A stretch of DNA of 42,086 bases from a virus, in the IMG/VR virus record IMGVR_UViG_3300027832_000001; one strand, given 5' to 3'. Under the pieces are notes generated by a model that did not search any database, was not told the DNA's origin, and saw only the letters and a program-made list of their open reading frames with translations. The position numbers and the translations under genes are program-made. Numbering within the stretch: position 1 is the stretch's first letter; the number at the start of each line of letters is the position of its first letter. This document shows positions 3,131 through 42,086 of the stretch, in pieces.

Positions 3131-3187
3131 CAGAATAGTTTCGGGCGAGGGGTTGACGACCCGACTCGGGTCGGATAGAGTGAGGGT
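3131..3187 (+). promoter_or_regulatory. Promoter-operator cassette copy 1
   Basis: -35 TTGACG at 3153-3158. 17-nt spacer containing the perfect palindrome CGACCCGA-C-TCGGGTCG at 3157-3173. -10 TAGAGT at 3176-3181. ATG at 3188, so no room for a leader or RBS. Confidence 0.7.
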
Positions 3188-10795: not shown

Positions 10796-10845
10796 TTTCG
10801 GGTTGAGGGTTGACGACCCGACTCGGGTCGGATAAGATGATTGAC
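10788..10845 (+). promoter_or_regulatory. Promoter-operator cassette copy 2
   Basis: -35 TTGACG at 10810-10815. Palindrome at 10814-10830. -10 TAAGAT at 10833-10838. ATG at 10846. The conserved AATAG supplies the MuF-gene stop codon (10793-10795). Confidence 0.65.
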
Positions 10846-32985: not shown

Positions 32986-33042
32986 TGGTTTCTCGTTTCA
33001 GGGTTGTCCTCGACGGGGTGCCGAGATTGGTGGAACAGCCAC

Positions 33043-33071
33043 AGTCTACCCGACCCGAGTCGGTCTGGCTA
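33043..33071 (-). promoter_or_regulatory. Leftward promoter with the same operator half-site
   Basis: The reverse strand reads TAGCCA-17 nt-TAGACT. The spacer holds CGACCCGA-G-TCGGTC (33051-33065). Sits ~50 nt upstream of the gam ATG. Confidence 0.4.
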
Positions 33072-33082
33072 CCTCCAATCTT

Positions 33083-33141
33083 CCAGAATAGTTTCGGGTT
33101 GAGGGTTGACGACCCGACTCGGGTCGGATAGAGTGATTGAC
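33083..33141 (+). promoter_or_regulatory. Promoter-operator cassette copy 3
   Basis: -35 TTGACG at 33106-33111. Palindrome at 33110-33126. -10 TAGAGT at 33129-33134. ATG at 33142. Confidence 0.7.
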
Positions 33142-36635: not shown

Positions 36636-36664
36636 CACCCGGCTCGACTCGGGTCGATTAGAGT
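36636..36664 (+). promoter_or_regulatory. Degenerate cassette copy upstream of the HNH / modification operon
   Basis: CGGCTCGA-C-TCGGGTCG (36640-36656), then TAGAGT at 36659-36664. The -35 position reads CACCCG, which is poor. Confidence 0.35.
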
Positions 36665-36728
36665 GAAGTCGATCGGTTGCTCTGCGTGGCCGACGTAACG
36701 GGCTACGGCCCAGAAAGGTTCCGATGGC

Positions 36729-37097
36729 GTGATTCGCTCTGGTCCGATCAAACGTAAGAAGTCAGCGGATCGGACCAGAGCAGGGTCGCCCGCACAGGGT
36801 GCTCAGAGGCCATCTAAGCAACGATCCCGCCCGAGGAGGGCCGGTGTCGCCCCTGATACCGCTGAGGCTGTGAAGGAGCGAGACCAAGAATGCCAGGCGT
36901 GGCCGCTCGGCTTCGCTCTCGATCGCCGATGTTCGGGCCGAGGCCACATTCACCATCGTGTGCTGAGATCGCAAGGAGGCGAGCACACCGCCGAGAATCT
37001 GCTACTGCTATGCGAGGCGCATCACGACCTCGCTCATAACTCACGACGGGCCGAGGCTGAGGCAGCGGGCGTCATCATCAGAAGGGGTATCAAATGA
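36729..37097 (+). CDS. HNH endonuclease
   Basis: ORF track. HIHHRVLRSQGGEHTAENLLLLCEAHHDLAH is a canonical H-N-H core. Confidence 0.8.
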   Translation: MIRSGPIKRKKSADRTRAGSPAQGAQRPSKQRSRPRRAGVAPDTAEAVKERDQECQAWPLGFALDRRCSGRGHIHHRVLRSQGGEHTAENLLLLCEAHHDLAHNSRRAEAEAAGVIIRRGIK

Positions 37098-37528
37098 ACA
37101 ACATGAGTTTGTTCGACGGAGACGGCGACGACGAAGGCGACAAGAAGGACGACCGGCTGGCGACGCTAGTGGCCAGAGTGTTCTTCTTGATGAGCGATCG
37201 TCACTGGCGTTCGCTCGGCGACATCGGCGAGAAGGCGGGAGGGTCGGAAGCGTCCGTGTCGGCTCGGCTCCGAGATCTACGGAAGCCACGTTTCGGTGGG
37301 CACACCGTCGAGCGTCGCCTGGTTGGCGGCGGGCTGTACGCCTACCGGCTCCAGCCGAGCGATCTTGGTCTGCTCGACGGCCGGGCCGAGCGGTCGCCGA
37401 AAGCCGACGCTCGACGCCGGGTGACCGAATACCTCGACAAGCGGGAAGGCCAGCTCCAGGCTGATCTGATCGACTGGGCTTGGTCCGGCGAAACACTGTT
37501 GATGTCCGATCTTCGGGTGCTGCTGTGA
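37094..37528 (+). CDS. Hypothetical protein, possibly winged-helix DNA-binding
   Basis: ORF track. ATGA overlap. HWRSLGDIGEKAGGSEASVSARLRDLRK. Confidence 0.4.
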   Translation: MNNMSLFDGDGDDEGDKKDDRLATLVARVFFLMSDRHWRSLGDIGEKAGGSEASVSARLRDLRKPRFGGHTVERRLVGGGLYAYRLQPSDLGLLDGRAERSPKADARRRVTEYLDKREGQLQADLIDWAWSGETLLMSDLRVLL

Positions 37529-37920
37529 ACGATCACATCCGGCCGGTCATGTCGCAGGCCCAAATCGAACATCAGATCATGGACACCGCCGATGCGTTGG
37601 AGCTGCTCGTCGAGCAGTACGCCGAGATCGCCGAGGCGGCTGGACTGTCCACGGCGGAGCATCTGAAACAGCAGGCGCTGATGACCTTGGCCGTCATCGA
37701 GCATCCGCCGCGCAACGAAAACGGACTGGCAATAAAGCAGGATGCGAAGTCTCGTGACGCACGGATCGAGCTGGCATCAAACGACGAGCGGAAGGCGGCT
37801 GCGATTGCTGGCGCTCGTCGAGAGTTCCAGCGAGAAGCGATGTCGATGCAACGGTCACGGCTCGACGCTCTCCGCACCCTCGCCGCCAACGTGCGATACC
37901 AGTTGAGTAACAACGGATGA
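37525..37920 (+). CDS. Hypothetical helical protein
   Basis: GTG 37525 (GTGA overlap) inside ORF 37480..37920. ATG 37549 is an alternative start. Confidence 0.5.
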   Translation: MNDHIRPVMSQAQIEHQIMDTADALELLVEQYAEIAEAAGLSTAEHLKQQALMTLAVIEHPPRNENGLAIKQDAKSRDARIELASNDERKAAAIAGARREFQREAMSMQRSRLDALRTLAANVRYQLSNNG

Positions 37921-38183
37921 GCACGACCGTAGTCGGGTATGGTGTTGGCATGACCGAGAACGAATCCAAGAAGCTGTCCGCTCTCCAGCTCTCCGTGTGC
38001 CGGGGCAACCTGGCGATGCTCGAACGTAATGCGTTTCTCAAAACGCTGTACGAGAAGGGTGCCACGCAGCCCGAGCTGGCGATCACACTCAACGTAGTGT
38101 CACGCACAGTGGGCGACAAGGAGATCACGCCGGACGCCGTGTACCGGGCGATCAAACGCATCAACGATCGGAGCGGATCATGA
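37917..38183 (+). CDS. Small helix-turn-helix protein
   Basis: ORF track. ATGA overlap. GATQPELAITLNVVSRTVGD. Confidence 0.45.
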   Translation: MSTTVVGYGVGMTENESKKLSALQLSVCRGNLAMLERNAFLKTLYEKGATQPELAITLNVVSRTVGDKEITPDAVYRAIKRINDRSGS

Positions 38184-38809
38184 GTGGCTTCACAGTCAAC
38201 CAAGAGTTCAACGAAGCGATCCCGCTCAGCCAGCTGACGGAGCACCCCGACAACCCGAGGCGAGGCGACGACGTGGCGGTGGCCGAGTCGGTCGAGGCGA
38301 ACGGCTTCTACGGCGCGGTCCTCGTCCACAAGGCGACCGGGCATGTACTCGCCGGTAACACCCGGCTGCGTGTCGCCCGAGAAGCGGGCGAGACAGCGAT
38401 CCCCGGCTTCTGGATCGACTGCGATGAGAAGACCGCCAAGCGGATTCTTCTTGCGGACAACCGTGTGTCTGATCTTGCGTACTACGACGACCAGTTGCTG
38501 CTCGACATGCTCCGAATGGTGGAGGATGAGAGTGGCAACCTGGTCGGCACCGGATACGACAGCTCTTCGATGGAGCTTCTGATGCAGGCTGCTTCGGCGG
38601 AAGAGATCATGGGCGGTGTCCGGCAGGGCGCTACCCCAGAAGACCGTATGGGCGCTTACGTTGCGGCGGACATCCGCTCGCTGATCCTCCCATACGAGCA
38701 CGACGAGTATGAGATTGTTGCGGACGGTCTGATTGCTCTTCGCTCGGCGATGAGTTTGGATACGAACGCCGATGTGATCTTGCGGCTCGTCGTCGAAGCC
38801 ACGGCCTGA
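38180..38809 (+). CDS. ParB/Srx N-terminal-domain protein (ParB-like nuclease domain)
   Basis: ORF track. LTEHPDNPRRGD and LAGNTRLRVAREAG match the ParB N-terminal-domain motifs. Confidence 0.75.
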   Translation: MSGFTVNQEFNEAIPLSQLTEHPDNPRRGDDVAVAESVEANGFYGAVLVHKATGHVLAGNTRLRVAREAGETAIPGFWIDCDEKTAKRILLADNRVSDLAYYDDQLLLDMLRMVEDESGNLVGTGYDSSSMELLMQAASAEEIMGGVRQGATPEDRMGAYVAADIRSLILPYEHDEYEIVADGLIALRSAMSLDTNADVILRLVVEATA

Positions 38810-39789
38810 TGGAGTTGGCGCAGACAGTCGTCCCGCGCATCGTTCGCAAACGAACATTGAGTCCGCTCGTCCGCTGCACGTTCGCCGAGTTGGACCAACG
38901 AATGTTGAACGATTACGGCTCGTGTGACGCAATGATCCCATACAGCCCTCGCCACCCGTGCCCGAACTGCGGACACGTCCAGGTCCAGGCGACCGCCTCG
39001 GCTCCGCCACCCGACGCCGAAATCATCGAGGGCAACGTTGCGCTCATCGACGCCGACACCGGCGAGGTGTCCGCAGTGCAGGTGATCGCCGTCCCCGATC
39101 TGGCGAACCGTTTGGCGGTCGATCTGGGGCACATCAAATGGGATGCACCGGTCAACGCTCGCGGAAAATCAGCGAACGAGACACGACTGTCCGGCATGGT
39201 CGTGACGCACCGGACCTTCGGATACACACCTCCCGTCCCGCTCCGCCGTCGGTATGCGTGTGCGGCCGCAAGGTTCAACTTCGATTACCCTTCTGCCTCG
39301 GCGGCGATCTCCGAGTACGTCGTGGCTGCGGAGCATGTGTTCCGTACACAGGCGGGCGACAAGTATGAGGCGACGGCGACCGAGGTGCTGGCGCAGATCC
39401 CGGCTGCGTGGCGTATCGCTGGCAGCCCGTGGACCTCGGGCATTATCAACAACACGGCGGCTCTCCCGTACCATCGAGACTCGAACAACATCAAAGGTTC
39501 TTGGTCGGCGATGCTGGCGATTCGCAACAACGTCGAAGGCGGTCTGCTGCACCTCGCCGACTACGACGTGTGGTTACGGGTGCCGAACGGTTCGATCTCG
39601 ATTTTCGATGGACAGTCGGTTCTTCATGGCGTATCACCGTTCAAGCTGTCTGGCCCGAATGCTTACCGGTACACGATCGTGTCGTATGCCCGCCGAGGTC
39701 TGCGAGTATGTTGCCCAGACCCGAGGGGCGAGTCGAGGCGCGCCGCTATCGCAGCGACCGCCGCCGACGACAAGAGACGCAACCGATGA
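38809..39789 (+). CDS. 2OG-Fe(II) dioxygenase, TET/JBP-like, with an N-terminal zinc ribbon
   Basis: ORF track. The ATG overlaps the ParB-like gene's TGA. Contains CPNCGH. LPYHRDSNN supplies HxD in an H-R-D-x-x-N context, followed by GGLLHL, the distal His in SVLHGVSP, and YRYTIVSYAR. Confidence 0.6.
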   Translation: MELAQTVVPRIVRKRTLSPLVRCTFAELDQRMLNDYGSCDAMIPYSPRHPCPNCGHVQVQATASAPPPDAEIIEGNVALIDADTGEVSAVQVIAVPDLANRLAVDLGHIKWDAPVNARGKSANETRLSGMVVTHRTFGYTPPVPLRRRYACAAARFNFDYPSASAAISEYVVAAEHVFRTQAGDKYEATATEVLAQIPAAWRIAGSPWTSGIINNTAALPYHRDSNNIKGSWSAMLAIRNNVEGGLLHLADYDVWLRVPNGSISIFDGQSVLHGVSPFKLSGPNAYRYTIVSYARRGLRVCCPDPRGESRRAAIAATAADDKRRNR

Positions 39790-40634
39790 GGGTCTTCGTT
39801 TTCGGTTACGACAGGTTCGAGAACATGACGACCTCGCTGCTGTTGGCGGGCGATGGCGTCGAGCACACGGTTCTTTGTCACAGCGACGAGGACCGGGCGA
39901 AGTTCTTGGCTGGCGGCGCTGTCGGCGGCGAGGTCGTGGCGACCGGGTTGGAGCGTGGCCTCGCTGGTCAACGTAACGCTGCTCTGGACATGCTTGGCGA
40001 CGGCGAGTGGGGAGTGTTCTTAGTGGACGATCTGGTGTCGGTGTCGGAGGTGTCGGGTTACGACGAGCGGCGGCGGACGAGGACGACCGAGCTGGGTATC
40101 AACATGGACAATCAGGCTGCGTTCAAGAACGGCATGGAGTCGCCGATCTCGTGGGACCGATTTATGGTCCGGTGTGCGGAGACGGCGGATGCGTGTGACG
40201 CAATCGGCGCTCGGCTCGGCGGCTTCTGCGGGATTGCGAACCCGCCGTGGCGTGACCGTAAGTGGAAGTTCAATGGTCTGGCCGACGGGCGGGCGTGGGT
40301 TGTGAAGCAGGAGCCTGGGTTCCGTGTCGAGGCTGGCGCTGGTTGCATCGACGATTTCGGGTGGACGGCTCAGCAGATCGAGCGGCACGGTGTGGCCGTC
40401 GTGAACCAGTGGGTGTTGCCGACTGCTCAGAGATACAAGCCTGGCGGCTACGGCTCGATCGACGACCGGCTGGTTGAGAAGCTGGCAGCGGTCAAGTATT
40501 TGACGGCTCGGCACCCAGGCCTGTTGCGTGTGGCTGCGAAGAAGAATGAGCCTGCCGGTTCGCATGTGCAGTTCCGAAGAACGCTGAGTAGGGGTCAGCT
40601 CGATCGGGCGCGCAGGGTGCTCTCCTCGAAATAG
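39786..40634 (+). CDS. Putative GT-A-like glycosyltransferase coupled to the dioxygenase
   Basis: ATG 39786 (ATGA overlap) inside ORF 39408..40634. MRVFVFGYDRF resembles a beta1 strand. GQRNAALDML and GVFLVDDLVSV give a DxD-like acidic motif. Confidence 0.4.
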   Translation: MRVFVFGYDRFENMTTSLLLAGDGVEHTVLCHSDEDRAKFLAGGAVGGEVVATGLERGLAGQRNAALDMLGDGEWGVFLVDDLVSVSEVSGYDERRRTRTTELGINMDNQAAFKNGMESPISWDRFMVRCAETADACDAIGARLGGFCGIANPPWRDRKWKFNGLADGRAWVVKQEPGFRVEAGAGCIDDFGWTAQQIERHGVAVVNQWVLPTAQRYKPGGYGSIDDRLVEKLAAVKYLTARHPGLLRVAAKKNEPAGSHVQFRRTLSRGQLDRARRVLSSK

Positions 40635-40683
40635 TTTCGGGTTCAGGGTTGACGACCCGACTCGGGTCGGATAGAGTGAGGGT
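40627..40683 (+). promoter_or_regulatory. Promoter-operator cassette copy 4
   Basis: -35 TTGACG at 40649-40654. Palindrome at 40653-40669. -10 TAGAGT at 40672-40677. ATG at 40684. The conserved AATAG supplies the stop codon of 39786..40634. Confidence 0.7.
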
Positions 40684-41825: not shown

Positions 41826-42037
41826 TGAGCGGCACGGACGCCCGCCGCCAATGCCCTTGTGGTCGTTGCCAGACGACAACCGGCCGTCGAGCGGACATTG
41901 TTGCAGGTGCCGCAGCCGTCGCCCTCGGCTTCGTACTGTTCGCCGTCGCTGACGGTGGCTGGGTCGCCCTCACCGGCTGGGTCTGCATGATCGCCGCTGG
42001 TGGCTTCGGTGTCCGCTACGTGGGAGACGGATCGTGA
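41825..42037 (+). CDS. Small membrane protein (70 aa) spanning the assembly junction
   Basis: ATG 41825 overlaps the upstream TGA, inside ORF 41603..42037. CPCGRC followed by two hydrophobic segments. The 3' end is duplicated at 1-78. Confidence 0.5.
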   Translation: MSGTDARRQCPCGRCQTTTGRRADIVAGAAAVALGFVLFAVADGGWVALTGWVCMIAAGGFGVRYVGDGS

Positions 42038-42086
42038 ACCGTGAAGTCGTGACCATCGACCAGATGGTCAACGGCGACCTGATCGC
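41960..42086. repeat. Second copy of the 127-bp terminal redundancy
   Basis: Identical to 1-127 by direct comparison. Confidence 0.95.

Follow-up and report, generated by a model that had tools for sequence, protein, structure and literature searches.

The DNA analyzed here, IMG/VR virus record IMGVR_UViG_3300027832_000001 (42,086 nucleotides in its full length, hereafter called the window), carries three overlapping genes that encode a ParB-like protein, a dioxygenase of the TET/JBP family and a GT-A glycosyltransferase (GT). We propose that this cassette is probably a post-replicative thymine hypermodification module, in which the dioxygenase, activated by the ParB-like protein, would convert thymine (T) to 5-hydroxymethyluracil (5hmU) and the GT would then glycosylate the product. 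In the first step of the proposed pathway the putative 5-methylpyrimidine dioxygenase (5mYOX), with Fe(II), 2-oxoglutarate (2OG) and O2, would hydroxylate the C5 methyl group of thymine in phage DNA to produce 5hmU. In the second step the dioxygenase would require the co-translated ParB-like activator on double-stranded DNA (dsDNA); this activator is expected to be a dimer with a ParB nucleotide-binding domain (NBD) and a C-terminal dimerization domain, and to be devoid of a DNA-binding domain of its own. In the third step a TAGT-type GT-A enzyme would move a sugar from a host nucleotide sugar to the new hydroxyl group, so that the product would be a base-J-like glycosyl-5hmU in selected sequence contexts. 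The pay-off would likely be resistance to host nucleases, and a role in packaging or regulation is possible. The first two steps are proposed because of homology and gene context in the window together with the experiments of O'Toole et al. (PMC13229309), and the third because of the relationship of the GT to TAGT proteins, the gene coupling and the work of Pyle et al. (10.1101/2023.12.21.572611).

The middle gene of the three most likely encodes a TET/JBP-family Fe(II)/2OG DNA 5-methylpyrimidine dioxygenase, predicted from its sequence and modeled fold to act on thymine and yield 5hmU. The protein scores above the gathering cut-off of Pfam Tet_JBP (PF12851; 36.7 bits against 34.9, E 3.1e-9, residues 169-295), and the same family is found in nearly all of the 120 homologues listed among 214 detected. 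No significant match was found in the PDB by sequence profile, either for the TET family or for the GT family, and fold comparison was therefore needed for both. When the AlphaFold2 (AF2) model of the dioxygenase (predicted local distance difference test, pLDDT, 91) was compared with the PDB by Foldseek, the first 26 hits were all TET-family proteins, i.e. CcTet of Coprinopsis, NgTET1 of Naegleria, human TET2 and CMD1 of Chlamydomonas (E 8e-12 to 1e-9), and non-TET 2OG oxygenases (PiuC-like, FTO, AlkB) began at E 3e-6. The catalytic residues lie in the motifs LPYHRDSNN (H222, D224 and N227), SVLHGVSP (H273) and AYRYTIVSYAR (the 2OG-binding R287). All five are invariant in an alignment of 45 homologues, and H222, D224, H273 and R287 likewise do not vary among 71 or 72 TETs encoded beside relatives of the GT gene. 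An earlier reading of the letters of the window (the original prediction) had named a TET/JBP-type enzyme with the HxD, a distal His and an Arg, and these assignments are borne out by the Pfam score, the Foldseek ranking and the conservation of the residues.

Two further elements of the dioxygenase lie outside the catalytic domain. The CPNC motif that had been placed N-terminal to the triad is present as C51 and C54, and together with C23 and C39 it forms a four-Cys element. Conservation of C39, C51 and C54 reaches 90% or more, and C23 belongs to the consensus. The element is a putative zinc ribbon, predicted to bind metal; the comparison with the L40e zinc ribbon was non-significant (E 0.59), and the actinophage homologue Nigel gp2 has no such element. 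At the other end, the AF2 model shows a 25-residue helical tail past C301, and among the close homologues C301, E308, R311 and A312 are invariant. A C-terminal extension past a Cys conserved in both subclasses is the reported mark of the ParB-dependent 5mYOXs (PMC13229309).

The first gene encodes a 209-aa protein that matches the PHROG ParB-like families at E 6e-31, and a profile of seven TET-linked ParBs matches the NBDs of Noc, Spo0J and ParB in the PDB at E 1e-12, in agreement with the ParB/Srx N-terminal-domain protein that had been predicted upstream of the dioxygenase; the Pfam ParB_N match (E 1.4e-3) is below cut-off. The protein is laid out as a ParB/Srx NBD (approximately residues 12-142), a short conserved segment, a linker and a C-terminal domain (CTD; approximately 160-209), and an alignment shows this last block at the C-terminal end of further TET-linked ParBs, among them Altadena gp60 and Nigel gp1. 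The PDB profile matches end at profile position 93-98 and cover the NBD only, and no helix-turn-helix (HTH) DNA-binding domain was found within the 209 aa. In the nucleotide pocket, the counterpart of the canonical GERR is GNTR in the window protein and GNHT in most TET-linked relatives, and the HMMER alignment to Noc sets the consensus GnhT against GERR. With N60 at the Glu position, the catalytic glutamate is lost, and nucleotide hydrolysis would not be expected. A methyltransferase hidden in this gene was considered and rejected: the PADLOC match extends only over positions 12-145 of 436 of a ParB-methyltransferase fusion model, and the protein is 209 aa long. Since the PADLOC and PHROG matches labeled "methyltransferase" cover only the ParB domain of such fusions, there is no methyltransferase domain; apart from the ParB N-terminal domain of the fusion models, PADLOC returned only a weak 2OG match on the cassette.

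By sequence and by analogy with published systems, the ParB-like protein is the predicted activator of the dioxygenase. In E. coli, ParB-associated phage 5mYOXs depended wholly or for the most part on the cognate ParB to make 5hmU, and 5mYOX176 requires ParB176 specifically on dsDNA (PMC13229309). The activating ParBs consist of an NBD and a CTD with no DNA-binding domain, and mutations in the nucleotide pocket did not abolish activation (PMC13229309). It seems rather improbable that the window protein instead has a separate task, in partition, in packaging or as a nuclease factor, or that it serves solely for targeting, beside a dioxygenase that works alone. A protein without a DNA-binding domain and with a degenerate GERR motif, encoded by a gene translationally coupled to the dioxygenase gene, does not fit such a role well; no ParA/CbiA/AAA_31-type family was found in the Pfam scan of all other genes, and several enzymes of this kind required their cognate ParBs (PMC13229309; preprint bioRxiv 10.1101/2025.08.14.668559). 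What speaks for an independent protein is that four loci with TET and GT genes and room upstream (L051, L052, L055 and L056 of our locus set, described below) have no ParB detectable by profile, that a ParB-independent 5mYOX subclass exists (PMC13229309), that the module usually adjoins terminase genes, and that a targeting role during packaging was proposed by Aravind and co-workers, as cited in PMC8256090. Activation of the dioxygenase by the ParB-like protein is the reading that we retain.

The third gene encodes a 282-aa protein whose AF2 model (pLDDT 95) has a GT-A fold, consistent with the GT-A glycosyltransferase that had been read from the motif FLVDD (D81/D82). Among PDB entries Foldseek matches the model best to AvpGT (E 4e-6), a nucleoside glucosyltransferase; GT-A glycosyltransferases and sugar nucleotidyltransferases rank behind it, and in BFVD the model is matched by TAGT-domain proteins at E 1e-15 to 1e-9 (TM 0.6-0.7). 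Pfam TAGT (PF20691) gives the window GT only 11.7 bits against a cut-off of 27.5 (E 0.25, over the N-terminal 36 residues only), and 13 of 45 relatives match the same model at E<0.01 (best 1e-5). The GT family profile was aligned by hhalign with a profile built from 26 TAGT proteins, for which Altadena gp63 (Pfam TAGT E 3.5e-16) served as the seed, and the probability was 96.2% (E 2.7e-9, 227 columns); neither BLASTP nor hhalign was significant against the single Altadena TAGT sequence. The GT residues R63, D81-D82 and D189-D190-F191 align in the profile comparison with R73, D90-D92 and E173-D174-F175 of TAGT, and across 45 homologues the GT motifs (see the table) either do not vary or are conserved to 90% or more. 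Phage GT-A DNA glycosyltransferases have been described with the active site R...DDD...EDY/F (10.1101/2023.12.21.572611), which the window GT spells in the variant form DD / DDF. A protein that falls under the Pfam cut-off yet passes the tests of homology, fold, motif and context is best regarded as a divergent TAGT-type enzyme, predicted on sequence and analogy to glycosylate 5hmU in DNA.

The GT belongs to a metagenomic family of 63 clusters at 90% identity, and 664 representatives at 50% identity were collected at E<=1e-3. PHROG has no match for the 282-aa protein, tblastn against 50,697 cultured-phage records returned nothing at E<=0.01, and NCBIfam has no match for the three cassette proteins or their neighbors. 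The cassette defines a GT subfamily to which current Pfam and PHROG models are blind. Two long proteins, P0214 (3389 aa) and P0331 (1406 aa), match a segment of approximately 30 residues toward the C-terminus of the GT profile (about positions 228-259) 32 and 13 times, respectively, and this short repeated motif is probably unrelated to glycosyltransfer.

A different acceptor has to be weighed for the GT. The ParB-like protein and the dioxygenase could make 5hmU while the sugar from the GT-A protein goes to a protein of the virion, to a polymer of the host envelope or to a free nucleoside, and this we regard as quite unlikely. AvpGT, the best solved-structure match, glucosylates free nucleoside analogues (PMC11959488), the window GT is under the Pfam TAGT cut-off, and actinophage glycosyltransferases have also been invoked for virion glycosylation (PMC13313380). 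On the other hand, the start of the GT gene overlaps the stop of the dioxygenase gene, the GT family is near-obligately linked with TET and ParB in two gene orders at a GC content of 28-65%, and its kinship to TAGT is seen in profile and fold with the active-site motifs aligned. We therefore keep DNA as the predicted acceptor of the sugar.

Thymine is preferred to 5-methylcytosine (5mC) as the substrate because of four observations: the window has no methyltransferase gene, no gap could hide one, C5-methylase genes are rare neighbors of related loci, and ParB-linked 5mYOXs have published activity on T. A Pfam scan of the 66 other called genes (E<=1e-3) returned 30 families in all and no methyltransferase, in accord with the absence noted in the original prediction; the hidden methyltransferase that would have counted against that prediction did not turn up. 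The largest uncalled gap, of 484 nt, is filled by an HNH gene. Among 134 neighboring open reading frames (ORFs) of 16 non-redundant related loci, one is a C5 DNA methylase. ParB-associated phage 5mYOXs converted T to 5hmU in vivo and in vitro (PMC13229309), and the sequence contexts of the published enzymes are NTR or YTY. The thymine (JBP-like) substrate that had been favored beforehand is supported by these data.

The competing pathway would start from 5mC laid down by a host methyltransferase (Dcm-like), which the dioxygenase would oxidize and the GT convert to glycosyl-5-hydroxymethylcytosine (glycosyl-5hmC), as in the C5-cytosine methyltransferase (C5-MT)/TET/GT pathways that Burke et al. 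and Pyle et al. described for phages. We hold this to be unlikely, although it has biochemical precedent: a second activity, on 5mC, is reported for both reconstituted T-dioxygenases, 5mYOX97 and 5mYOX176 (PMC13229309), TET89 has dual activity on T and 5mC (PMC8256090), and the structural neighbors of the window dioxygenase are 5mC-oxidizing TETs. The absence of a methyltransferase from the genome, the single C5-methylase among the neighboring ORFs and the demonstrated activity of ParB-linked 5mYOXs on T count against it, and dependence on host methylation would leave sparse, host-dependent marks.

Several points tell against ParB-activated formation and glycosylation of 5hmU, in addition to the low Pfam TAGT score of the GT. 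The characterized phage GT-A enzymes were assayed on 5hmC and not on 5hmU (10.1101/2023.12.21.572611), a point that also favors the 5mC pathway. Many ParB-linked 5mYOXs gave less than 5% 5hmU in E. coli (bioRxiv 10.1101/2025.08.14.668559), so that the level and specificity of activity are unpredictable. The ParB-dependent enzymes in the literature typically have kinases, amino-acid:DNA transferases (AADT) and amidotransferases as partners, and GTs are found mainly with the ParB-independent clade (PMC13229309); in our own survey the combination of ParB and GT is common. In our locus set, moreover, the length of the dioxygenase tail did not separate ParB-linked from ParB-less loci. With these points taken into account, ParB-activated conversion of T to 5hmU followed by glycosylation is still the reading that we consider probable. 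A more specific proposal, which we put forward tentatively and at somewhat less than even chance, is that the trio writes a true base-J-type mark by means of a TAGT subfamily specialized for 5hmU and a catalytically degenerate ParB-like clamp that gates the oxidation and is maybe tied to packaging. As the module often abuts terminase genes, the clamp might couple modification to DNA bound for packaging. If this proposal is true, base-J-like DNA would for the first time be known outside eukaryotes, and the trio would be a minimal three-gene system for writing it.

The conservation of the cassette was examined by scanning IMG/VR with the GT profile, which gave 80 loci, and then by hmmsearch with the ParB, TET and GT profiles. 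The trio is complete in 60 of the 80 loci, and a TET gene is nearby in 71. The order ParB-TET-GT is present in 34 loci and the order ParB-GT-TET in 24, two more have the complete trio rearranged, and the remaining 20 are incomplete, mostly because they are cut by contig ends. The GC content of the loci ranges from 28 to 65%, which shows that the module is not confined to actinophages. All five metagenomic contigs examined for GT homologues encode a protein of approximately 210 aa, Tet_JBP and GT in that order, and the commonest neighbor families of the related loci are large terminase and portal. In the loci L059-L089 (GC 30-50%, order ParB-GT-TET) the ParB matches are weaker, often over about 100 residues only, and the dioxygenases stop 8-10 residues past the conserved Tyr (PLKAFKGI); with such short tails they are devoid of the extension reported for ParB-dependent enzymes, despite the presence of the ParB-like gene. 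In another group (L051, L052 and L054-L056) a TET-GT pair is preceded by several kb of sequence in which the profile found no ParB; these may be ParB-less relatives, or their ParB may be too divergent to detect.

Among cultured phages, neither the cassette nor a 25-kb part of the window gave a megablast match in the 50,697 phage records, indicating that there is no close cultured relative, and the dioxygenases of cultured actinophages are 30-40% identical to that of the window. In Mycobacterium phage Nigel, the ParB (gp1) and TET (gp2) genes stand directly before the terminase genes. In Microbacterium phage MO526 (L003 3854-7051), the dioxygenase is accompanied by AADT, an FAD oxidoreductase and a P-loop kinase, and comparison with Arthrobacter phage Altadena (L001 2792-6167) shows one dioxygenase family with different tailoring sets in cultured actinophages. 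The TET/JBP homologues of Nigel (gp2, NC_011044), Cooper (NC_008195), Stinger (NC_023741) and MementoMori (NC_047987), as well as PHROG 6059, carry the label "queuine tRNA-ribosyltransferase". Only Tet_JBP/2OG-oxygenase kinship was found in those sequences, and the label looks like a propagated mis-annotation. The window large terminase (TerL) shares 40-46% identity with its nearest relatives, which belong to phages that infect Desulfofustis, an Actinomycetia bacterium and Brevundimonas. These hosts are unrelated, and the label "actinophage" given to the window phage at the outset is not established.

The window is a circular phage assembly with a GC content of about 61%, in which bases 1-127 are an exact copy of bases 41960-42086, as expected from the closed genome that had been predicted, and the unique genome length is thus 41,959 bp. 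The 127-bp terminal direct repeat is most simply explained as the assembler k-mer overlap of a circular contig. Genes were called by home-made codon-usage log-odds scoring, which gave 68 genes, nearly all on the plus strand, and strong scores for the ParB-like, dioxygenase and GT ORFs (52, 55 and 52, respectively). No tRNA was found in the window. The translational coupling predicted on both sides of the dioxygenase gene was verified: the ParB-like and dioxygenase genes share TGATG at 38807-38811, and the dioxygenase and GT genes share ATGA at 39786-39789. The ParB-like gene is itself joined to the upstream 88-aa gene by ATGA at 38180-38183, and the overlapping gene string begins upstream of the trio with an HNH endonuclease gene and has 4-nt overlaps throughout. 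The 88-aa gene may be a fourth member of the module, regulatory or DNA-binding; the same gene lies upstream of ParB in the near-identical contig L009, and in L005 an HTH_17 gene is found at that place. The genes from 36729 to 38183 are given as context for the cassette only, and a role for them in modification is conjectural. Coordinates are collected in the table.

Table. Features of the cassette and its surroundings in the window
Feature	Position	Strand	Basis or remark
22-nt motif copy	3162-3183		
22-nt motif copy	10819-10840		
22-nt motif copy	33041-33062	-	
22-nt motif copy	33115-33136		
22-nt motif copy, upstream of the gene string with the cassette	36645..36666	+	
HNH endonuclease, first of the gene string	36729-37097	+	HNH E 1e-4
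Unknown gene of the string	37094-37528	+	4-nt overlaps
Unknown gene of the string	37525-37920	+	4-nt overlaps
88-aa weak-HTH protein, ATGA-coupled to the ParB-like gene	37917-38183	+	HTH_23 E 7e-3, below cut-off
ParB-like gene, 209 aa	38180..38809	+	ORF and codon-usage call
ParB pocket motifs: HPDNPRRG (box I, R27 invariant), AGNTR for canonical GERR, LLADN (box III)	38240..38470	+	
TET/JBP dioxygenase (5mYOX) gene, 326 aa	38809..39789	+	ORF and codon-usage call
N-terminal four-Cys element C23, C39, C51, C54 (CPNCG), predicted zinc ribbon	38875..38970	+	
Catalytic H222-x-D224 (plus N227), H273, 2OG-binding R287	39472..39669	+	Conservation; coordinates verified
C-terminal extension after conserved Cys301 (CCPDPRGESRRAAIAATAADDKRRNR), predicted helix 305-325	39709..39786	+	AF2 secondary structure
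GT-A glycosyltransferase gene, 282 aa	39786..40634	+	ORF and codon-usage call
GT active-site motifs R63-N64, D81-D82 (FLVDD), D167-G168-R169 (ADGRAW), D189-D190-F191 (IDDF)	39972..40355	+	
22-nt motif copy directly 3' of the GT gene, start of the next unit	40658..40679	+	Overlaps sigma-70-like TTGACG-17-TAGAGT

The Pfam families in the rest of the genome include TerL, Mu-F, tape measure, SSB, ERF, Gam, HNH, SLT, holin and several HTH families, and the same scan detected no DNA polymerase, integrase or thymidylate-synthase-like enzyme. ERF, SSB and Gam are recombination genes, and the lysis genes include an SLT-domain transglycosylase and the holin. A 22-nt motif, CGACTCGGGTCGGATAGAGTGA, occurs in six copies in the window where none is expected by chance. 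Four copies fit the degenerate pattern without mismatch (three are identical and the copy at 36645 reads ...GAT...), and the other two have three mismatches. The motif holds the palindrome CGAC-N4-GTCG and a -10-like TAGAGT, and every copy that was compared with the gene calls lies in intergenic DNA, including a divergent pair between oppositely transcribed blocks. It is probably a phage promoter/operator. The gene string that bears the cassette is flanked by two copies, and no terminator was found 3' of the cassette, only the repeated promoter-like motif.

The original prediction had also presented the cassette as an uncharacterized kind of system, and this part does not stand, although its functional conclusion, drawn from the letters alone, is the one that was published for such systems in 2025-2026. 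ParB-dependent phage thymine dioxygenases have already been demonstrated by O'Toole et al. (bioRxiv 2025; PNAS 2026), 5mYOX-linked GT-A enzymes are published, the trio is annotated in cultured Arthrobacter phages, and an earlier notice by Aravind's group of the association of ParB with such dioxygenases is cited in PMC8256090. The domains most often found beside phage 5mYOXs are GT (31%) and ParB (27%), and only 6% of those pathways include a C5-MT (PMC13229309). We found no literature report of glycosylated 5hmU in phage DNA, though it is implied by two surveys. The value of the cassette is practical rather than conceptual: it is compact, since its three genes overlap and come with neither a methyltransferase nor accessory genes for kinases or sugar tailoring, and this compactness recommends it for the reconstitution of a phage pathway from T through 5hmU to glycosyl-5hmU.

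One of the systems nearest to that of the window is the ParB-dependent 5mYOX clade C1 (clade E of the preprint; 5mYOX176/ParB176; O'Toole et al., PNAS 2026, PMC13229309; bioRxiv 10.1101/2025.08.14.668559), in which TET/JBP likewise lies directly downstream of a short ParB of NBD and CTD, and ParB dependence is predicted for the window by this analogy. Both lack an adjacent C5-methyltransferase and are of phage or metavirome origin, often with a terminase near, and the tail of the window dioxygenase past C301 may correspond to the C-terminal extension of clade C1. The neighborhoods of clade C1 contain GATase, P-loop kinase and AADT, whereas the window has the TAGT-type GT as its only partner enzyme, and its dioxygenase has the N-terminal Cys4 element, of which no mention is made for clade C1 (PMC13229309). 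With the phage 5mYOX-associated GT-A/TAGT enzymes (PF20691; Pyle et al., Cell Rep 2024; 10.1101/2023.12.21.572611) the window GT shares the GT-A fold, the active site R...DD...DD(F) and the TET/JBP neighbor, and ParB is a co-occurring annotation in those systems as in the window. The GTs of Pyle et al. act on 5hmC made by a methyltransferase/5mYOX pair; the acceptor in the window would be 5hmU.

Among cultured phages, Altadena gp60-gp64 (with relatives in Lilmac1015, Bolt007, Klevey and others) has the same order on one strand, i.e. ParB-like gp60, Tet-like gp62 and TAGT gp63, and its dioxygenase is 32% identical to that of the window over 69% of the length. Altadena differs in having an extra small ORF between ParB and Tet, a canonical TAGT and the PIG-L deacetylase gp64; its dioxygenase is without the Cys4 element and its GT is not detectably similar to the window GT by BLASTP. 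The TAGT together with a PIG-L-type deacetylase suggests a sugar derived from N-acetylglucosamine (GlcNAc) in that phage. The chromosome-segregation ParB/Noc CTPase clamps and the window protein have in common the ParB/Srx nucleotide-binding fold with the box I Arg and the box III Asn, but the latter has no HTH parS-binding domain, reads GNTR for GERR, is only 209 aa long and is encoded in a genome without ParA. In the trypanosomatid base J pathway (JBP1/JBP2 and JGT), whose GT is resembled by the phage GT-A enzymes that adjoin 5mYOX and glycosylate 5-hydroxymethylpyrimidine DNA (10.1101/2023.12.21.572611), the two-step chemistry is the same as that predicted for the window, 5hmU formation followed by GT-A-like glycosylation. 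The window system differs from it in a dioxygenase without a J-binding or SWI2/SNF2 domain (10-17% identical to eukaryotic TET-family enzymes in structural alignments), in the presence of the ParB-like putative activator and in its viral/bacterial setting.

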